Positions 1,358 through 47,629 of a DNA stretch of 58,306 bases are shown one piece after another. This DNA comes from an uncultured Nitrososphaeria archaeon (lineage in GTDB: Archaea > Thermoproteota > Nitrososphaeria > Geothermarchaeales > JDFR-13). The notes below the pieces were generated by a model. The model did not search any database. It saw only the letters and a program-made list of their open reading frames with translations, and was not told where the DNA came from. The first letter of the stretch is position 1, and the number at the start of each line of letters is the position of its first letter. The stretch is taken from the NCBI GenBank assembly GCA_964529905.1, contig CAZGXJ010000005.1:1-58306 (forward strand). The letters are read 5' to 3'. The position numbers and the translations under genes were made by a program.

Positions 1358-2433
1358 AAATATAATAGGGAGATATATCAGGAAGCAAAGGAACTGTACA
1401 ACAAAGGGTACAGTGTTACAAGAATAAGTAGAGATTTTGGTATTCTAATATCTACATTACAGCATTGGCTGAGATATGGTATGGGAGAACATATATACCT
1501 AAACTGAAAAATAGAATATACATTATCGGAATACTATCAAGTGAAACAACTATACAAAGAAGGTTATAACGCATGTGAAATACATGGAAATACTTGGAAT
1601 ACCCAGGATAACAATTAGAAACTGGCTAGCAAGAGGGAAGAGACCTAGAGATACATATTCAGAGACAATAGGAAGGTTCAGTAAATGGATAGAGAAAAAC
1701 CATCCATATAACGATGAATACTATAAGATATTCTATGACCCAACAAAATGGCCATACATAGCCTACCTATACGGAGTAATAATCACCGACGGAACAATAT
1801 TTTATAATATAACATACAAGAGATATGCCATTAGGATAATGGGAGAGAAAATTTTCCTTGAAAGAGTAAACAACATGATCTATAAACTGCTTGGAAGAAG
1901 ATATAGCATTTTCAAAGATAAATTGGGGAATAGATTCATAATAGAAATTACAAGAAAGACATTATGTCAAATAATGAAACTTGGATTACAAAGCATTGAG
2001 CCCTTGATGAATATAATCGGATACAATGAAACAACCAAGAAAGGATTTATTCTTGGAATCGTGGATGGAGATGGGACCTATACTCCAACTGACAACTATG
2101 TTATTATCAAGAAGACAAAACGATGGTGGATAGTATCATATAGTGGATATCTTCTAAAGACATTAGGAGTAAGATATCGATGGATGGTGAACAGGAATGG
2201 AGGTAGGATACGCATCATCAAAAATCGTTATAAAGTAGTTGAAAAGGATAGATTTAGATGGTACTGCAAAGGAAAAGTCTTCATCACAAAGATTGGACCA
2301 ACAATATAGATCACGAAGAGGAAAGGCTTACCAGAAAAAAATTAAAAAGCTGCTCAAAAAAGGTAAAGGATCCATTAAAATAACTTATATACCCCTCCTC
2401 CCTTTTTATCACCACCAAAAAATCTTAAATTAA
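1292..2433 (+). pseudogene. Disrupted free-standing tandem-HTH plus double-motif LAGLIDADG endonuclease
   Basis: HTH1 ELYNKGYSVTRISRDFGI..STLQHW; in-frame TGA 1505-1507; HTH2 QLYKEGYNACEI/MEILGIPRITIRNW split by a frameshift near 1583; motifs YLYGVIITDG and FILGIVDGDG; further break near 2307. Confidence 0.75.
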
Positions 2434-2483
2434 ATAATGGGAAAACCGATTTTTTCTCATAAAATATTTGAAAATATCAAGTA

Positions 2484-2605
2484 TGGTGGGCCCGGCCGGA
2501 TTCGAACCGGCGACCTCTCGCTGGGGGATAACTCTGTCCCCGAGCGGTAGCTTATCAGCCCTACGCATATGGATTGAGCGCGCTACCAGGCTACGCCACG
2601 GGCCC
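2484..2605 (-). tRNA. tRNA-Ile(GAU) with three 15-nt introns (29/30, 37/38, 39/40); CCA encoded
   Basis: Removing 2561-2575, 2538-2552 and 2521-2535 gives a cloverleaf with CTCGG-CT-GAT-AA-CCGAG; each intron forms a full BHB. Confidence 0.92.
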
Positions 2606-2620
2606 TCCATGGGTCATATA

Positions 2621-3091
2621 TTATTTTTGTGTGTTGTTCGTTTTTAAGTTTTTCTGTGTTGTGTCTGTTGCAGTTATTCTTATCGTTAGCTGTGTATTCG
2701 GATTTTTTAATTTGTCTATTAACTCTCTTTTTATGTCTTTAGCCGCCTTATCGGCCTTTATTGCTAGTGTCCTCTCATCTATGTATGTAGATTTTCTTAT
2801 TACTATTGATTTTGGGGAGGTCAGGATTAGCTTATTTGATCCGTATGCATGTATAACATCCTTTATTCCTTCTGCCTCTATCTCTATTGTAATATATGTA
2901 TTATCATTTTTTAGGAGTTTTCTCAGCTCATTTGGAAGGTCTATACAGGCCTTTTCAGACTTTATACCTATTATACAGTCCCCTCTTTCTGTCAGGAAAT
3001 CTTCCTTCGTTATTTCGAATGTCGATTTGTGGGTTGCCTTAATATTTACATGTCCATATGCTTTAAACACGTATTCAATCCTCATTTCCAT
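2621..3091 (-). CDS. DUF371 family protein (likely start near 3085)
   Basis: GH.NI.ATHKSTFEIT, RGDCIIGI, IVIRKS.Y.D.RT, ADKAA motifs. Confidence 0.85.
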   Translation of the reverse strand: MEMRIEYVFKAYGHVNIKATHKSTFEITKEDFLTERGDCIIGIKSEKACIDLPNELRKLLKNDNTYITIEIEAEGIKDVIHAYGSNKLILTSPKSIVIRKSTYIDERTLAIKADKAAKDIKRELIDKLKNPNTQLTIRITATDTTQKNLKTNNTQK

Positions 3092-3740
3092 TGGATTCTT
3101 TCAATGGTACAAATGCTACTGGAAATAATTCCCTCTTAAATATTTTACCTATCCTCTTTTCGATTAGGTATAGTGTTTGGTAGAGTGTATATCCTATTGG
3201 GATCAACATTCTACCATTATCTTTAAGCTGACTTATTAAATATTTGGGAGGTTTTTTGGCTGCGGCCGATACCAAGATCTTATCATAGATCTCGATCTCC
3301 TGTTTAGGCGGCCATCCTAGACTCCCATCTCCATATATAATTGTTACATAGTCTTCGAGACCCGTCTTTTCTATATTTTCCGATGCGAATCTATATAGTG
3401 GATATAAGTATTCTATGGAATATATATGTCCATATCCCCTACCCAATTCAATAATTTTACCTATTAACGCCGCTTGATATCCGCTTCCCGCCCCAATTTC
3501 AAGGACTGAGTCGTTCGGCTGTATATTCAATATTTCTAGATAGTATGCATTCATATGTGGAGCCGATATCGTTTGTCCAGTTTCACCTAATGGAGCCGGC
3601 GAATCTTCATATGCATATTTTTCATATCCTGGCCACATAAAATCTCTTCTATCTATCTCTTGAAATGCTGATATGTAAAGCTTATTCTTTAATATACCAC
3701 TTCTAACCAGTGAATCGACTAGATCCCTATTTGACTTCAT
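3075..3740 (-). CDS. pcm: Protein-L-isoaspartate O-methyltransferase
   Basis: GQTISAPHM, VLEIGAGSGYQAA, GDGS.G, V.FVPL. Confidence 0.93.
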   Translation of the reverse strand: MKSNRDLVDSLVRSGILKNKLYISAFQEIDRRDFMWPGYEKYAYEDSPAPLGETGQTISAPHMNAYYLEILNIQPNDSVLEIGAGSGYQAALIGKIIELGRGYGHIYSIEYLYPLYRFASENIEKTGLEDYVTIIYGDGSLGWPPKQEIEIYDKILVSAAAKKPPKYLISQLKDNGRMLIPIGYTLYQTLYLIEKRIGKIFKRELFPVAFVPLKESNGNED

Positions 3741-5668
3741 TATTCTTTTAAATATGTTGTTGAGAGGAGGTCTAATGGATATGCATCTACACCTATTAAC
3801 TCTTTGATCCCCTGGACCAACGAATATATCTTGGAGATCTCACCATGGACTACATATACATTTCTTAGGAGGTGCTTCAATCTACCAACAAATCCCATAA
3901 GCTGCCTCCTATCACTATGACCTGTAAATCCATCGAACTTCTTAACCTCCATATTCACGGTTATGGTTTTCATCCTTCCTTCATGTAGAATATCTATCTT
4001 CCTATATCCATCTACCAATTTTCTTCCCAGAGTATTTGGAGCCTGATATGATACAAAGGCTAGAATATTCTTCTCAGATTTAGCTAGATTGACAAAGTAT
4101 TCAATTATAGGTCCTCCCTGCATCATACCCGATGTAGATAATATTATAGCTGGACCCTCAGATTCTATAGCTTCACTCCGATCCTCTGAATTCTTAATGG
4201 GAATTATGTTTTCCGAGCTGAAGGGGTTCCTCCCCTCTTTAAGGTCCCTCCTAATCTTTGGATTTAGATATTCTGAGAACATGTAATGTATCTTATTGGC
4301 CTCATCTATCATTCCATCAATATATATCGGCATCTCAGGGATCTTATATCTCTCATCATTTGTATTCAATAGATAGTTTATGACGGCTAGAATCTCCTGC
4401 GCACGTCCAACTCCAGGTGTGGGGATTATAAATTTGCCTCCCCTCTCATATGCCTTCTTAATATATTGTGAAAACTCCCATTCAACTTGACGCCTTGGAG
4501 GTAGTATATCACTTTTAGCCCCATATGTACTCTCCATAACTAGAGTTTCGACTCTAGAAAACTCTGTATAGGCTGCTTCAAGTAGCCTAGTTGGCCCAAA
4601 TTTAAAGTCGCCTGTGAAGAGTATATTATATACACCCTCCCTAATGTGGATGTGTGGCATAGCCGATCCAAGGATATGGCCTGCATTGAAGAACGTCAAC
4701 TTAATATCTGGCGAAACATCTGTAACCTGATTATATCTCAGGGTAATGGTATGTTTAATCATTTCTTTAACGTCATTCATGTTAAATAGCGGTTCAAAAC
4801 CACCCTTACTACTTATCTCCAGAAAGTCCTTCAATAATAACGTCGTTAGATATAGAGTAGGCTCGGTCATATAGACCGGCCCATCATATCCATATTTATA
4901 TAGTAGTGGTATCAAACCGCTGTGGTCGAGATGGGCATGTGTAAGAATGATGGCATCTAGATCATTTAGAAACATATCTATAGCGTCTATCCTTGGAATA
5001 TAATCTGTTAGAGATATTGCATTTACTTTCACCCCAAAATCTATGAGTATCTTACTCTCTGACGTCTTTAACAATATACATGACCTACCTACTTCACCTA
5101 CACCACCTAACCCAATTAGAACGATGTCTTTACTAGGCCTTACCGCATCCCTAAAGATCCTCTCCCCAATATTTGATAAGAGACGTTTATCTCTAGCTTT
5201 TCTCTCATCTAAAACAAATGAATTATATACTTCTGAGAGGACTTCTGGTAGGCTTATGTAATATGACCTAAATTTAGGGATCCATTTAGTAGTCTTTACT
5301 ATTTCAAACGAGATTTCCCTAATATCCTGTTTCTGCAAAGTTTTAGAAAGATAGATATGGACCTCCCCCCTTAAACTATCGAAGAATATCTTTATATCCC
5401 CATTATTTACGCCAAAATCCTTTAAGATCTCATATATTTTTTCCCTTGCGATCTCTCTATCCATCCTAACCTCTGGATCTGATCTAAGGATTAAACGCTT
5501 CTTAAATTTAGAGGCCAATGAACTTATCAACCTGGAATCCTCATAGAACTTCTCTGGTTCTGTAGTATATAGAGCTAGAGCTGGACCTTCATATGTTATA
5601 TTTTTAACTATTGCCTTACCCATTAACTCTTTCATAATCATCAATGTGATATTTCTCATTTCACTCAT
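3740..5668 (-). CDS. fttA: Beta-CASP ribonuclease aCPSF1/FttA with N-terminal KH domains
   Basis: EVGRS, THAHLDH, AGHILGSA, MESTYG, GRAQE, GHSD, VHGE; next to psmB. Confidence 0.93.
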   Translation of the reverse strand: MSEMRNITLMIMKELMGKAIVKNITYEGPALALYTTEPEKFYEDSRLISSLASKFKKRLILRSDPEVRMDREIAREKIYEILKDFGVNNGDIKIFFDSLRGEVHIYLSKTLQKQDIREISFEIVKTTKWIPKFRSYYISLPEVLSEVYNSFVLDERKARDKRLLSNIGERIFRDAVRPSKDIVLIGLGGVGEVGRSCILLKTSESKILIDFGVKVNAISLTDYIPRIDAIDMFLNDLDAIILTHAHLDHSGLIPLLYKYGYDGPVYMTEPTLYLTTLLLKDFLEISSKGGFEPLFNMNDVKEMIKHTITLRYNQVTDVSPDIKLTFFNAGHILGSAMPHIHIREGVYNILFTGDFKFGPTRLLEAAYTEFSRVETLVMESTYGAKSDILPPRRQVEWEFSQYIKKAYERGGKFIIPTPGVGRAQEILAVINYLLNTNDERYKIPEMPIYIDGMIDEANKIHYMFSEYLNPKIRRDLKEGRNPFSSENIIPIKNSEDRSEAIESEGPAIILSTSGMMQGGPIIEYFVNLAKSEKNILAFVSYQAPNTLGRKLVDGYRKIDILHEGRMKTITVNMEVKKFDGFTGHSDRRQLMGFVGRLKHLLRNVYVVHGEISKIYSLVQGIKELIGVDAYPLDLLSTTYLKE

Positions 5669-24937: not shown

Positions 24938-27900
24938 TTATAGGAAATCCTGTAATGTCCTTTCCTTATCTCTATAAATGCTTAAAGATGTTTTTAGATC
25001 CATGTCAATTACATCCCATCTAGACATTATATATGGATCATCTATTATCTTGACTAACCTACTAGCTAATCTAGTATATTTAACTACACTTTTCTCGCTT
25101 ACAGTCTGTTTCAATTCTCCCCCACAGAAACTACATTTCCCACTTATGGGGGGCCTTCTGTAACTCTTTTGACATTTCTTACATATATAACTTTGCTTGA
25201 AGAAAGCCCTTAGATTTCCCTTTATATCTCTAAATATGTGGTTCTCTAATAAACTATAGAGGATAAGTCTAACACCTTCCTTATCAAATATTAAATTAGC
25301 TATTCTTAATTGATGCTCTAACTTTTCTTTCATCGTTTTTAATGTAGAATATTTCGTTGTTGATGTCTCTAACTTTGTTAACGGATCCGACCTAAATGAA
25401 GGATATCTATAATAAGCTTCCTCAGATCCCAATTTGTCGCTTAATAATGTTACTATTCCGCTTAAAGACTTGGGGCTTCCATTCTTTTGAGAGAGAGCAT
25501 ATAGTTCTCTTGGATATCTTTGCATAATATCCAGATTATGAACCTGTGTATCTACCTCATTTGGATGCAAAATAGGTGAAATGAATAATGGTGTATCCAT
25601 TCTTCCTCCTGAGCTTGAAGGTAAGTAGTGTATACTAAAGTTTAATAGGATATCTAAAAGAAGAATTATTGAATCCTGGTCTCCATCACAGTCTCTTCTT
25701 TTTGCAGCATGCCATAAGGGAGAAGCATATAATACATTTGAATCGGTAAATCCGATTATCCTTCCTATTATTCCGCAGGAAGTATGGGGAGATAGACCTA
25801 CTACCAGCTTTCCAATTAGATCTTCTCTTTTTTTCACATTATATACAGGCTTAAGCTTATAGATCTTGGTGAGTGACTCATCTAAAAACTTACATACTCT
25901 AATTAAATAATCCGCTATTGATTTAGGGATTATTATATCCTGTGGATAGAGGTCTATAGTCCCATCGTCTTTCACATGGTAACCCAATTTTTCAGCCTTT
26001 TCTCTAGATAAGTTTATTTGCTTTATGGATACTGAATGTAGCGGTGCATTTGTAATATCTATTCTACATGTTCCATCTTTAAAGACAGACAGGCCGTATT
26101 TACTTCTCAGAAATCCCTTAACAAGGGGTTCAAAATATCCATCACTATTCATTAATTTCTTTACTCCCTTAACCCTCTTAGGAATTTTAAGTCTATATTT
26201 CTTCCTGGTTTCATCGACGATAGATTTGATGTTTACAACCCATTCCTTAGTTTTCTTTGTTTTCCTACCACACACCCTACACTTTTCTTCTAATCTAAAA
26301 TCCTTACATTTAGAACAGTAAAATCTAGGAATCGTTTCATTACCACATTTTGAACATTTCAGTTCATAGGTATATTTATTACATGTTAAGCAATATCTCA
26401 CAGCTAACTCTATACTTACAATCTTAGACTCTTCAGAGGCTTTAATAATGTCTCTTTGAGGCCCGCCATAATTACCAATAGGGAATAACACGTTTACTGG
26501 AGGAGACATTTCCCTAGGTTTAGCTTTTTCTGGCCGGCCCAACCTGGCTGTTACAAATGTTTCTTCCCCAAGAATAACTTTTACACCTATTACCAGACTC
26601 AGAATATTCTCTACATTCATGGATTTTGATATCATACTTTTCATCTTTGGGTAGAGTGTTAATAGATCTCTTAGGAAAAAGAAAAATCTATTGTTTACTA
26701 TCACTTCAGTGTCTCTGATTGCAAATGGAACCCTAAGCGATTTTAGAATATCCGTTACATCACTGGTGTATTTGAAAATGATAGAATCGGTTTTAACATT
26801 GACTAAATTATCGGATAATTTATCCAAAATAGATAGTAATTCTTGACCACCTTCTATGCTCCTAAAATTAGGGATATACCAGGGATTTAGGGGCACATTA
26901 TATTTCATGCTTAGGTTTAGAGATTCTTCATATGTAACGGATCTGGGATCATCTATATTTATCCCAACGTTTTCCAATTCTGCCATCCACCAATATTCAT
27001 CATAATATTGGGGAACTAATGGATAATTGTTTTCGATGAAGTCACCTATCGAGATAACTATGTCGCCGAGAAATAATATTCTTTTTACCTTATCCTTAAT
27101 ATGTATAGCCTCTCTCTCACTAAGAACTTCAACGACCGACCCATCCTTTAACTCAACTAGTGGTGGCCATGCAACTAACGACGGAACGACTATTCCGCCT
27201 TTTCCTGGTAAATTAAGCTTAAGCTGTGATCCAACAACTATAAAATAATCAAGTAATGGAAAAACGGCTGGGTGGACACCTACAGATGATATTCCAATAT
27301 GAGGCTCTCTACCATATTTCAAACGGAAACCTTTTTTCAATTGGGATATTGAGAAGACTGGCCTACCGATAACTAAATCACTTAGAACTCTATCTTCTAC
27401 TTTTTTATTATAACTACTTTTTTGATCCTTTGAGTTATTTTTATCATCATAGGCAAGTTTTTTTAACCAGTCCCATCCATCTAATCCTAATTCTTCAACT
27501 ACCTTTAATAACTTCTTAGCTTTACCTATTAAACCATCATTTATAACTCTGAGAGCACCACCTCTAAGTCTGTTAGTTTCAATACCAGGTAAATCTCTAT
27601 ATGACAATACTTCTACATCATCAGTTGGAACACCTGTTATTTCTACAGGAAGATTTTCTACACAATAAAGTATTTTTTCATCTGGATGTTCATATTGAAA
27701 CGATCCGACAAACCGTTCATATAGCCGGATCTCCTCAAGTAATCTATATACTTCATACCTTGTCGGCCTATATTCATCTATAGAAAGCTTCCTACGTAAG
27801 TAATCAGCAAATATAACTGATAATCCAGTCTCAGTTCCACCAGCAGATCTAATGGGACCTGCATAGTATATAGATATATAAGAAGTATAACCCCTTCTTT

Positions 27901-28342
27901 TTATTTCGACTTTTTTAATTCCATCTAAAGGGGCAACCGTCATTCCCTCTGTAAGAATAGCTAGGGGAAGCCTTACGCCAAGTTCAACCAATTCATTTAT
28001 GCTAAAAGATCCAAATTCACCTTCTAAAAGCTTGTCTATTGCTAATAAAGCAAGTCTCTCTCTTGATAAGGACCTATTTTCCCTAATAAACTTAGATACG
28101 CCCTCTACTTTCAAACCATTTATTGATAACAATCTCTCAACTCTTTCTGCCATATCCCATGTGAAGAAGGTTTCAACATTAGGTTCAGGATCTATTCCTC
28201 TTTTTCGTGCTTCAACGGCTATTGCGTATAAATCTTCTATACTGGATAGTATAGATAGAAAATAATCTTCTAGTAACTTGGAAAAATTGAATTTTTTAAC
28301 TTTTTCCTTTAACCGATCGAAGTCTATTTTTTCCGCCATCAT
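24938..28342 (-). CDS. polC: DNA polymerase D large subunit DP2 (no intein)
   Basis: AGPIRSAGGT, R.GRPEKA, FKDGT.R, PHTS, AAKRRDCDGDQD, C-terminal Zn finger and TLQDFL PIP-like tail. Confidence 0.97.
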   Translation of the reverse strand: MMAEKIDFDRLKEKVKKFNFSKLLEDYFLSILSSIEDLYAIAVEARKRGIDPEPNVETFFTWDMAERVERLLSINGLKVEGVSKFIRENRSLSRERLALLAIDKLLEGEFGSFSINELVELGVRLPLAILTEGMTVAPLDGIKKVEIKRRGYTSYISIYYAGPIRSAGGTETGLSVIFADYLRRKLSIDEYRPTRYEVYRLLEEIRLYERFVGSFQYEHPDEKILYCVENLPVEITGVPTDDVEVLSYRDLPGIETNRLRGGALRVINDGLIGKAKKLLKVVEELGLDGWDWLKKLAYDDKNNSKDQKSSYNKKVEDRVLSDLVIGRPVFSISQLKKGFRLKYGREPHIGISSVGVHPAVFPLLDYFIVVGSQLKLNLPGKGGIVVPSLVAWPPLVELKDGSVVEVLSEREAIHIKDKVKRILFLGDIVISIGDFIENNYPLVPQYYDEYWWMAELENVGINIDDPRSVTYEESLNLSMKYNVPLNPWYIPNFRSIEGGQELLSILDKLSDNLVNVKTDSIIFKYTSDVTDILKSLRVPFAIRDTEVIVNNRFFFFLRDLLTLYPKMKSMISKSMNVENILSLVIGVKVILGEETFVTARLGRPEKAKPREMSPPVNVLFPIGNYGGPQRDIIKASEESKIVSIELAVRYCLTCNKYTYELKCSKCGNETIPRFYCSKCKDFRLEEKCRVCGRKTKKTKEWVVNIKSIVDETRKKYRLKIPKRVKGVKKLMNSDGYFEPLVKGFLRSKYGLSVFKDGTCRIDITNAPLHSVSIKQINLSREKAEKLGYHVKDDGTIDLYPQDIIIPKSIADYLIRVCKFLDESLTKIYKLKPVYNVKKREDLIGKLVVGLSPHTSCGIIGRIIGFTDSNVLYASPLWHAAKRRDCDGDQDSIILLLDILLNFSIHYLPSSSGGRMDTPLFISPILHPNEVDTQVHNLDIMQRYPRELYALSQKNGSPKSLSGIVTLLSDKLGSEEAYYRYPSFRSDPLTKLETSTTKYSTLKTMKEKLEHQLRIANLIFDKEGVRLILYSLLENHIFRDIKGNLRAFFKQSYICKKCQKSYRRPPISGKCSFCGGELKQTVSEKSVVKYTRLASRLVKIIDDPYIMSRWDVIDMDLKTSLSIYRDKERTLQDFL

Positions 28343-32354: not shown

Positions 32355-33809
32355 TCAAGTAATTTTCACCATATATGGTGTCAAACTATTTAGCTCTACG
32401 AGCGCGACTTTCCCTAAATCAGGTTCAATTTTCATCATCTTTTGATACCTGGTTTGTCTTTGAAAGGTGCCACTATTAACACAGAGTATTCCGTATATTT
32501 TTGAGATATTAAATTTATGGGTATGTCCAAAATGAAATAATGATAATCCATCTTTAATTACTAAATAGTCTCTAGATTCTGGGGCTATCTTGGTAGATAA
32601 ACCTATCTGTGGAGCTAAATGAGAGTAATCCAGTAGCAATTTGACCGCTAGATTTATATCTTCTTGCGATATTCCTGGGGTTGAAGACAATATATCTTGT
32701 ATAAAGTCTCCATGGTAAATCAAGGTATTTACATCATGTAAACTTACATTTACAGGATTTCCCAGCATAAGAAATTGATTATCTTCATAGAATTTAGACG
32801 CAAATTTTTTGAATATTGGTGGCTGTGGTAGCGATGATCTACTTGCATCGTGGTTTCCAGGTATAATTAATATCTTATATTTCTCGGGAATCTTTTTTAA
32901 AATCCTATAAGCTTCTTCGTACTGCTGATAAACATCGAATATTTCAAGATCGTTTTCCTGGTTTTTGTAGACGCCTACACCATCTATGATATCTCCAGCT
33001 ATTAGGACATATTTTGTCCTCTTGATCAATTTTTTTAGATCATTATTGTCAGTGTGCCCTCTTAATATATCTATTAAGTTATCAAATAGTTCTATATCAA
33101 AGTATTTACTCCCTATATGTAGATCTGAAATAAGCACTGCATATATTTCGTTTCTCACCTTTCTTTCTTTTGTTCTACCTTTTACTTTAGGTGGAAATAT
33201 ATCGGTAATTATAGCCCTACCTTTTGAGTTTATAAATACCTTTAGACCAAGAACCACATCTAGAGGTGTCTTTATTAATTGTTCGAAAAGCCTAGGGTTA
33301 TTATCTTTGTATAGATATGCTGTAACTTGTCCTGTCAAGTCTTCTATCTCAACTAACATCCTGTTCTGATTTATCCTTTTCCTATATAGTAAACCAGTAA
33401 GTATAACTTCATTACTTCTATATTTCTTATCCATAATGTCAGCGATATTAATAAAATCATCTATTTTTACATACCGCTTTATCTTTTGAACAAGCTGGGA
33501 ATATCTATCCCGTAACAACTTCTCGTAGTCTCCTTTACCTCCTCTAAGTATACTTCCGGGATCAAATAAAACATGTATATTTTCCTCTATAATATAGTCC
33601 TCATTATTTAATTCTTTGGGTTCGGGTAGAAATCTGGATATATCTGCTTTCCTTATTAAAATTTTATCCTGATGCCTTAATATTTCCTTAAATTTCTCCT
33701 GTGTTAGATAGTTGATATTTTCCCTAATAAATGAAATTGCGTCATTTGAAAGTATAAACCCCATTTCATTCGCTATTTTAATATACTTCTCGATCTCCAC
33801 CATAATCAC
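32355..33809 (-). CDS. polB: DNA polymerase D small subunit DP1
   Basis: ED.TG OB fold, SDLHIGS, AGDIIDG, PGNHDA, YHG, HLAP, GHTH, NSGTFQ. Confidence 0.95.
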   Translation of the reverse strand: MIMVEIEKYIKIANEMGFILSNDAISFIRENINYLTQEKFKEILRHQDKILIRKADISRFLPEPKELNNEDYIIEENIHVLFDPGSILRGGKGDYEKLLRDRYSQLVQKIKRYVKIDDFINIADIMDKKYRSNEVILTGLLYRKRINQNRMLVEIEDLTGQVTAYLYKDNNPRLFEQLIKTPLDVVLGLKVFINSKGRAIITDIFPPKVKGRTKERKVRNEIYAVLISDLHIGSKYFDIELFDNLIDILRGHTDNNDLKKLIKRTKYVLIAGDIIDGVGVYKNQENDLEIFDVYQQYEEAYRILKKIPEKYKILIIPGNHDASRSSLPQPPIFKKFASKFYEDNQFLMLGNPVNVSLHDVNTLIYHGDFIQDILSSTPGISQEDINLAVKLLLDYSHLAPQIGLSTKIAPESRDYLVIKDGLSLFHFGHTHKFNISKIYGILCVNSGTFQRQTRYQKMMKIEPDLGKVALVELNSLTPYMVKIT

Positions 33810-33844: not shown

Positions 33845-33960
33845 TGGCGCCGGGAGTGGGATTTGAACCCACGCGGGGCGGGGCCCCATCGGCTGGCCCG
33901 ACGATCTCGAGGCCTAGGCGCTATCATTCTCGACCCCTTAGGCCGCTCGGGCATCCCGGC
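33845..33960 (-). tRNA. tRNA-Ser(CGA) with introns at 29/30 (17 nt) and 37/38 (11 nt); CCA encoded
   Basis: Removing 33914-33930 and 33895-33905 gives TCGGC-CT-CGA-GA-GCCGA, long variable arm, G73. Confidence 0.92.
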
Positions 33961-34090: not shown

Positions 34091-34212
34091 GCGGGGGTTC
34101 CCCTAGCCTGGCCAACGGGGTGCGATTCAATTTTTTAAGTCACTAGGCTCAGGCCCGCATAGGTGGCGGTGGGCTAAGGCCTTCGTGGGTTCAAATCCCA
34201 CCCCCCGCACCA
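34091..34212 (+). tRNA. tRNA-Leu(CAG) with introns at 30/31 (22 nt) and 44/45 (11 nt); CCA encoded
   Basis: Removing 34125-34146 and 34161-34171 gives TGCGG-CT-CAG-GC-CCGCA and variable arm TGGCTAAGGCCTTC. Confidence 0.9.
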
Positions 34213-47528: not shown

Positions 47529-47629
47529 AGCCCCGGGCGGGATTCGAACCCGCGACCTGCGGCTATCTCGCATGTTCTAGATACAAGGCCGCCGCTATTG
47601 CCTCTCTCTGGCCGCTGAGCTACCGGGGC
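47529..47629 (-). tRNA. tRNA-Thr(UGU) with introns at 22/23 (11 nt) and 37/38 (17 nt); CCA not encoded
   Basis: Removing 47597-47607 and 47565-47581 restores the GCTC/GAGC D-stem and GCGGC-CT-TGT-AA-GCCGC; U73. Confidence 0.9.

Follow-up and report, generated by a model that had tools for sequence, protein, structure and literature searches.

Nested introns in crenarchaeal pre-tRNAs are the closest described counterpart of the gene reported here. In the accounts consulted in part, the last bulge-helix-bulge (BHB) motif of such a precursor forms only once the other introns have been removed (PMC3728597, PMC3978253, PMC8450103). Nested multi-intron pre-tRNAs were described by Sugahara et al. 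(2007, RNA 13:671) and in vitro evidence for sequential splicing came from Tocchini-Valentini et al. (2009, PNAS 106:20246), both as cited in PMC3728597 and PMC3978253, and tRNAscan-SE 2.0 works iteratively because nested introns need prior removals (PMC8450103). Multi-intron tRNAs have also been reported in the Aigarchaeota member C. subterraneum, where 13 of 45 tRNA genes contain introns and three of these contain several (PMC3293823), and in Thaumarchaeota (PMC8450103). Large-scale transposition of tRNA introns is known from the Thermoproteales (Fujishima et al. 2010, MBE 27:2233, via the reviews PMC4090602 and PMC4033280), and outside the archaea, tRNA-Ile(UAU) of Cyanidioschyzon merolae holds three BHB introns, of which the one at 37/38 leaves last according to RT-PCR (PMC3728597).

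The gene examined here encodes tRNA-Ile(GAU) with three introns and lies in a stretch of 58,306 nt (the window) of an archaeal assembly, referred to as G000. As in the nested crenarchaeal pre-tRNAs, which hold two to three BHB introns, each splicing step would consist of two cuts by EndA and one joining by a ligase. Unlike the cases in those accounts, the intron predicted to be removed first is not placed inside another intron but sits 2 nt downstream of it in the exon (39/40), the lineage is not Thermoproteales, and the first-removed intron depends on intron 2 for the 5' half of its BHB, so that the dependence runs both ways. In C. merolae, as described there, each BHB folds alone and motif stability sets the order, whereas here the order would come from shared bases. 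With Aigarchaeota and Thaumarchaeota, as far as the sources consulted describe them, the genome has in common PolD, a predicted heteromeric EndA and introns at canonical and non-canonical sites, but it is richer in introns than C. subterraneum (20 of its 31 Rfam tRNA matches are too long for an intron-less tRNA, versus 13/45), and the multi-intron genes named for that species are Leu, Glu and Thr rather than Ile or Tyr, with no 39/40 helper mentioned in the portion of the report consulted. The recurrence of similar introns at the same site in different tRNAs (29/30 in Ile, Val, Gln, Ser and Lys; 39/40 in Ile and Tyr) recalls the Thermoproteales transposition as reviewed, except that the copied unit here would include part of a neighbouring intron.

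The assembly comprises 719 kb in 41 contigs with 37% G+C and is 84% complete. Both PolD subunits are encoded in the window (Table 1), and amoA is present in all eight genomes of one family within the class, against 0/16 of the other genomes of the host's order. A scan of genome contigs with PolD gave distant matches only, at 38% to a Nitrososphaeraceae MAG and 37% to a Bathyarchaeia MAG, and protein atlas matches point to Thermoproteota/Nitrososphaerota. PolD together with amoA-bearing relatives in the class indicates that the lineage is not Thermoproteales, and the distribution of amoA makes the host a non-ammonia-oxidising member of that class. The host is thus a small-genome thermophilic archaeon from a class of ammonia oxidisers, in a different order. 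The sequence-only reading had set this lineage apart from the Thermoproteales on the strength of PolD, and this holds; since PolD-bearing lineages had already been reported to contain multi-intron tRNAs, however, genes of this kind were known outside the Thermoproteales too.

The genome encodes both an endonuclease suited to non-canonical positions and an RNA ligase. The EndA alpha protein (185 aa) resembles the alpha subunits of A. pernix, S. tokodaii and P. aerophilum at 1.4e-49 to 1e-34, the best being the A. pernix subunit 3p1z_B at 1.4e-49, and in the Crenarchaea-specific loop its residues K41 and K43 stand opposite K44 and R46. The lysine K44 of this loop widens the substrate range of EndA, according to the part of PMC3241643 consulted. 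A second, divergent EndA paralogue (19.8 bits, below the Pfam cut-off; PDB 1a79 at 2e-8) is a candidate beta subunit from its sequence, and the two proteins would form a heterotetramer. The two EndA genes are in the regions C1:16492-16743 and C22:3686-3946 of G000. RtcB is matched at 560.5 bits.

A promoter-like A-rich/TTAAAAA element begins 48 nt upstream of tRNA position 1, and the motif is found at -56..-30 in 16 of 31 tRNA genes versus 80 of 3000 random genome positions. DUF371 and PCMT genes lie directly upstream on the same strand, with the promoter-like element falling in the last codons of the DUF371 ORF. On the other side, 175 nt past the 3' end of the tRNA gene, is an ORF of 244 aa that contains a pair of LAGLIDADG-like motifs; its Pfam LAGLIDADG_3 match, at 21.4 bits, falls slightly short of the cut-off. 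No counterpart of this ORF was found at the locus of the congener G001, where a DUF123 gene abuts the tRNA, and it may be an inserted homing-endonuclease-like gene.

Table 1. Coordinates of the tRNA-Ile(GAU) gene, its neighbours and other loci mentioned in the text (window positions unless a genome and contig are given; L numbers are locus identifiers).
Feature	Position	Strand	Basis or remark
tRNA-Ile(GAU), whole gene, 122-nt precursor including CCA	2605-2484	-	
5' exon, positions 1-29: acceptor 5' strand, D arm, anticodon-stem bases 1-3	2576..2605	-	Rfam alignment, BHB solver, ARAGORN
Intron 1, 15 nt, site 29/30	2561..2575	-	Strict hBHBh' in every splicing state
Exon 30-37 with anticodon GAU	2553..2560	-	BHB solver, ARAGORN on spliced product
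Intron 2, 15 nt, canonical site 37/38	2538..2552	-	BHB analysis, comparative pairing
2-nt micro-exon A38-C39	2536..2537	-	BHB analysis, congener comparison
Intron 3, 15 nt, site 39/40	2521..2535	-	Strict hBHBh' only with intron 2 present
3' exon, positions 40-73: rest of anticodon stem, variable loop, T arm, acceptor 3' strand, A73	2487..2520	-	
Encoded CCA	2484..2486	-	Sequence reading
Promoter-like A-rich/TTAAAAA element	2641..2653	-	Putative function
DUF371 gene	2624-3100	-	
PCMT gene	3078-3839	-	
LAGLIDADG-like ORF	1575-2309	+	
PolD subunit DP2	24938-28342		
PolD subunit DP1	32355-33809		
tRNA-Ser(CGA)	33845-33960	-	Hand reading
Class II tRNA, Leu(CAG)	34091-34212	+	Hand reading
tRNA-Thr(UGU)	47529-47629	-	
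tRNA-Tyr(GUA), L094	G000 C17:3336-3488	-	
tRNA-Phe(GAA), L073	G003:C9:43984-44099	-	
Loci with 29/30 introns	G000 C28:222-330, C21:9974-10080, C16:4061-4173, C2:27258-27398; L074, L075, L081-L084		
Loci with GATGA/CTGA introns	G000 C16:242-356, C22:735-856, C2:27258-27398; L070, L071, L077, L078, L081, L082		

The gene is hard to recognise with standard tools. The Rfam tRNA model RF00005 scores 46.0 bits over 2487-2605(-), above its gathering score of 29; in the anticodon arm the alignment has 56 nt inserted where 11 consensus positions are expected. ARAGORN in default mode did not call the tRNA-Ile gene at the locus, called nothing on the unspliced precursor and, with introns allowed, mis-typed the gene as Trp(cca). 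When the product spliced in silico by coordinates was submitted, ARAGORN returned tRNA-Ile(gat) of 77 nt. This product is a perfect class I cloverleaf with 21/21 stem pairs, GAU in a 7-nt loop, U33, A37, the T-loop motif and A73. The CCA is encoded in the gene and absent from congener genes, which have TCA (G001) and CTA (G003) instead. A search for RNA runs covering window positions 2300-2800 returned none; among contigs from two DNA runs, one is identical over 2300-2740, contigs of other organisms match the T arm, and no splice joint is seen. These results confirm that the locus is a real archaeal tRNA-Ile gene with three BHB introns; its splicing is predicted from the sequence anatomy. The three sites and the 2-nt exon proposed from sequence alone are returned by the BHB solver and agree with a separate reading of the minus strand.

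For the analysis of the introns, a strict motif (hBHBh') was defined as two 3-nt bulges with a 4-bp helix between them and helices flanking them, cut after the second base of each bulge. All three introns are 15 nt long, one base over the 14-nt hBHBh' minimum, and follow the same 1+2+4+2+4+2 layout, with central helices of GCGC/GCGT, CTGA/TCGG and GGGG/CCCC in introns 1, 2 and 3. The outer helix of intron 1 uses G31-C32-U33(-G34), and the 5' bulge in the BHB of intron 3 begins with the two bases of the micro-exon A38-C39. Different bases on either side fix the boundary between introns 2 and 3, which leaves no room for sliding. A solver that cuts out BHB-like segments, at most three and in whatever order, and rates what is left as a cloverleaf returned the same three introns as the best of five solutions, with a cloverleaf score of 26, the maximum. 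This solver left 3 of 20 long tRNA matches of the genome without a solution. On its top path (order 1, 3, 2) every intron is a strict hBHBh' at its own step, with central, outer and inner pairs of (4,4,2) for intron 1, (4,3,2) for intron 3 and (4,5,2) for intron 2. When letters were shuffled within introns, none of 200,000 trials retained all three strict BHBs; taken singly, the introns retained theirs in 179, 505 and 16 trials. A scan of the precursor gave four strict BHB matches, namely introns 1 and 3 and two decoys whose excision would in both cases destroy the tRNA. Strict BHB matches alone are therefore not rare, and the exact restoration of a tRNA is the improbable part.

The motif of intron 3 is built largely on its neighbour. 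The last seven nucleotides of intron 2 supply the 5' strands of both its outer helix (CTC/GAG) and its central helix (GGGG/CCCC); of these seven bases, two also belong to the central helix of intron 2 and two to its 3' bulge. In the full precursor, intron 3 has 4 central, 3 outer and 2 inner pairs, and with intron 2 deleted it is left with 1, 1 and 2, which bears out the proposal that its BHB is made with intron 2 sequence. The reverse dependence is seen in the outer helix of intron 2. With 4 central and 2 inner pairs throughout, intron 2 has one outer pair in the full precursor, two once intron 3 has been removed with intron 1 still present, and five when introns 3 and 1 are both gone, so that here too the BHB of the intron removed last is completed only when another intron has left. 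The introns are not nested in one another, as intron 3 begins 2 nt past the end of intron 2, and the overlap between them is restricted to their BHB motifs. Because these motifs share bases they are mutually exclusive, and because they cannot coexist we infer that the 2-nt exon is never freed. The pairing thus gives good support to a predicted order in which intron 3 leaves before intron 2.

The same comparison separates the two parts of the order that had been proposed, in which introns 3 and 1 both had to precede intron 2. The first part stands. The second does not: the BHB of intron 1 (4 central, 4 outer and 2 inner pairs) is unchanged across all splicing states, so its removal before intron 2 is not required, intron 2 already has 4 central, 2 outer and 2 inner pairs once intron 3 is gone with intron 1 still in place, and the congener G003 has no intron 1 at all. 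The stretch CGCTCGG inside intron 2 is, as had been remarked, identical to mature positions 25-31, but it is only partly kept in congeners (CCCGG in G001, CCC in G003), and it is better read as whatever pairs with positions 41-43.

Folding calculations support the order through the ratio of the modelled populations and not through their absolute values. In the full precursor, the population of the intron 2 BHB is 7.8e-14 versus 1.1e-4 for intron 3 at 37 C, and 8.3e-8 versus 1.1e-3 at 75 C, and the motif energy of intron 3 rises from -7.3 kcal/mol with intron 2 to +9.4 kcal/mol without it (37 C). The nearest-neighbour model places no exact BHB in the minimum-energy fold of any intermediate, and even introns that are ready for removal reach modelled populations of just 1e-3 to 1e-6. 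When the full precursor is folded to minimum energy, intron 2 pairs with intron 3 at a shift of one base, and after removal of intron 3, the CTCGG of intron 2 forms a decoy stem with positions 39-43. With its 4 central and 2 inner pairs, intron 2 of the full precursor is a relaxed motif of the sort that broad-specificity EndAs can cut, so the order may be kinetic rather than absolute.

To place the locus in its lineage, we compared it with relatives, nine of which have an orthologue whose anticodon arm is the same. Within the genus, G001 has introns at the same three sites (14, 18 and 15 nt) and G003 has those at sites 2 and 3 (17 and 22 nt) without intron 1, while G002 and G004 have one 21-nt D-loop intron and an uninterrupted anticodon arm. 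In another genus of the family (G008, G012) only the canonical intron is present, G016 of the same order has D-loop and canonical introns, and the gene of G030, of the same class, is intron-less. The locus is orthologous in G000, G001, G002 and G004, where FttA, PCMT and DUF371 flank it. A single genus thus shows, at one orthologous locus, the gain and loss of introns and probably their copying as well.

The pairing between introns 2 and 3 is kept by compensatory change among the three carriers. The central helix of intron 3 goes from GGGG/CCCC to GGAG/CTCC to (A)GAG/CTC(G), with 4/4, 4/4 and 3/4 pairs when intron 2 is present and 1/4, 1/4 and 0/4 when it is not, and the outer helix goes from CTC/GAG to CCC/GGG, following a change of stem pair 28:42; the U28-A42 pair of the gene in the window is specific to its species. 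The inner helix is compensated in the 14-nt counterpart of intron 1 in G001. The central helix of intron 2 has an A-C mismatch in G001 and G003, and the inner helices in G001 have one pair. In an alignment of 6 of the 7 available modules (three Ile and three Tyr, all related and two of the Tyr nearly identical), 92.6% of cells pair versus 80.5 +/- 3.0 in shuffled alignments, 0/500 of which reach the observed value; 5 of 9 pairs in it are changed on both sides, and slid controls gave 51.9-72.2%. The Phe module of G003 was left out of this count, as it would not align.

The AC micro-exon recurs in the Ile genes of G001 and G003, the Tyr genes of G000, G002 and G004, and the Phe gene of G003. In the 153-nt tRNA-Tyr(GUA) gene of G000, a 58-nt intron at 37/38 is followed by AC and a 21-nt intron at 39/40, and the Tyr genes of G002 and G004 have the same layout with 62 and 19 nt. 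Without intron 2, the Tyr 39/40 intron still holds a relaxed BHB (3/4 central and 3 outer pairs) through the native anticodon loop, which partly replaces the helper in Tyr and cannot do so in Ile or Phe. The tRNA-Phe(GAA) gene of G003 has an 11-nt 37/38 intron, AC and a 31-nt 39/40 intron of unrelated sequence, which is left with 0/4 central pairs once intron 2 is absent; in G000 and G001, the Phe gene has just one intron, the canonical one. Among the 17 genomes of the order, the module pattern matched real tRNAs in this genus only (a match in G012 was not a tRNA), and the Tyr genes seen in 20 genomes of the class outside the genus, read by eye, have one intron followed by an uninterrupted A38-C39-C40. 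The 39/40 modules of Ile and Tyr share sequence blocks at the same position, with CGGAGAC and TCCCCTCCAGCGG common to the Ile gene of G001 and the Tyr gene of G004, though the sequences are few and short and the likeness is partly forced by pairing. This suggests that the Ile module was copied from Tyr. More tentatively, we put forward as a possibility that a helper-dependent 39/40 intron in tRNA-Ile, within a composite copied from Tyr to Ile and with a separate instance in Phe, is a geometry not yet described.

The likeness between Ile and Tyr could instead be convergence, arising from the exon context A38 C39 C40 G41 and the rules of the BHB, with no copying involved. The shared letters are indeed largely constrained (the GGAG/CTCC pairs, the AG before C40, the exon CGG), and the Phe gene of G003 has the same layout with an unrelated intron sequence. 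On the other hand, the 10-nt intron block TCCCCTCCAG plus CGGAGAC is shared beyond what pairing needs, and the layout is confined to the genus among 17 genomes of the order; we regard convergence as somewhat unlikely, with a substantial chance of being correct. Improbable to a greater degree is the absence of any obligatory order, in which a broad EndA would remove intron 2 from the full precursor and intron 3 would be recognised through a non-BHB or protein-assisted route, or some transcripts would be lost. Such a scheme can draw on the 4 central and 2 inner pairs that intron 2 retains in every state, on the relaxed BHL motifs that heteromeric EndAs cut according to the portion of PMC3241643 consulted, and on the pairs left to the Tyr 39/40 intron without its neighbour. 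It has to accommodate the near loss of the central helix without intron 2 in the Ile genes of three species and in Phe, base-sharing BHBs that cannot coexist, and a helper that covaries with intron 3 and positions 41-43, which is hard to explain if the helper is unused.

A decaying pseudogene, with a working tRNA-Ile(GAU) in the unassembled 16% of the genome, would be compatible with an assembly that is 84% complete in 41 contigs, with the low Rfam score of 46 bits and with BHBs that the thermodynamic model does not favour. Against it stand the perfect spliced cloverleaf with three strict BHBs, an architecture kept in G001 and G003 with compensatory changes, the promoter-like element and the search for a second gene copy, which in the 84%-complete assembly turned up no further Ile-GAU candidate. 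One ARAGORN call of 'tRNA-Ile(gat)' at G000 C2:27258-27398 proved on reading to be a two-intron tRNA-Lys(UUU). We consider a pseudogene very unlikely. Other boundaries would also yield the same mature sequence past A37, since by hand reading the G000 product can be obtained by keeping ACCG of intron 2 and excising 4 nt and 26 nt, with no 2-nt exon. This alternative requires a 4-nt intron, has no BHB and was not returned by the solver; the equivalent cuts fall elsewhere in G001 and G003, and the AC-flanked scheme alone fits the Ile, Tyr and Phe genes, leaving it with almost no probability.

The best explanation as a whole, which we hold with good though not full confidence, is a functional single-copy tRNA-Ile(GAU) gene processed by a heteromeric EndA and RtcB, with intron 3 removed before intron 2, intron 1 removed at any time, and a module probably derived from Tyr. 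What the genomes show directly is how the gene is built, that its features are conserved and covary, and that the enzymes are encoded. From this we propose how the gene is transcribed and cleaved, in which order its introns leave in the cell and which way the module was copied. A primary transcript with three minimal BHB introns would be cut by a heteromeric, crenarchaeal-type EndA and joined by RtcB. In the full precursor, complete BHB motifs would be available only at introns 1 and 3, with intron 3, two bases past intron 2, borrowing the last seven bases of intron 2 as its 5' strand. Intron 3 would be excised in the first step and the ends ligated, after which C39-C40 would pair with G31-G30, completing the BHB of intron 2 and allowing it to leave. 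Under this order A38-C39 would never be released as a free dinucleotide, and intron 1 would be free to leave at any stage. Protein binding presumably selects the BHB conformer. The unit of a canonical intron with a helper 3' end, AC and a 39/40 intron would be a genus-specific module, older in tRNA-Tyr.

Other tRNA genes of the genome and genus are also rich in introns. Introns at 29/30 are present in Ile, Val, Gln, Ser, Lys and Trp genes, and at least five tRNA genes of this genome have one with a similar 3' end; these ends are of the type G-Y-G-T-A-G before G30, as in Ile intron 1, and from their sequences the 29/30 introns look like a spreading intron family. Within the window, a tRNA-Ser(CGA) gene has introns at about 29/30 and at 37/38 by hand reading; it fell below the Rfam gathering threshold, was missed by default ARAGORN and was called Pro with introns allowed. 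A class II tRNA, read by hand as Leu(CAG) with an intron of about 22 nt in the 5' strand of the anticodon stem, was likewise missed at the Rfam gathering threshold and was called SeC by ARAGORN with introns allowed. The 101-nt tRNA-Thr(UGU) gene has an apparent 11-nt intron in the D-stem 3' strand in addition to a canonical intron; the D-stem motif is relaxed (3 central and 2 outer pairs), and the solver gave no solution for this gene. In this genus, the CAU, Lys and Trp tRNA genes have long canonical introns (38-55 nt) in which GATGA and CTGA motifs accompany a segment complementary to the anticodon loop, and in these features they resemble intron-encoded box C/D guides.

In the literature searched, which was seen in part and in which slash positions such as 39/40 are not searchable terms, we found neither a tRNA exon of 2 nt nor an exon-interrupting intron that needs its neighbour for half of its BHB, and no case of such a composite being copied between tRNA genes. 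These three points, with signs of copying of the module from Tyr to Ile, are therefore put forward provisionally as new. For annotation, genomes of this lineage will seem to be without tRNA-Ile, tRNA-Tyr and others, as such genes are missed or mis-typed by ARAGORN and Rfam; the Rfam gathering threshold missed two further intron-bearing tRNAs within the window, Ser(CGA) and Leu(CAG). The 122-nt precursor offers a substrate for testing EndA and RtcB on overlapping BHB motifs and a 2-nt exon, and it poses the question of whether RNA folding alone sets the splicing order. One intron that depends on another is a small example of constructive neutral evolution. If the helper-dependent, copied module is real, it would act as a complexity ratchet, in which intron 2 could be lost only after, or together with, the loss of intron 3.
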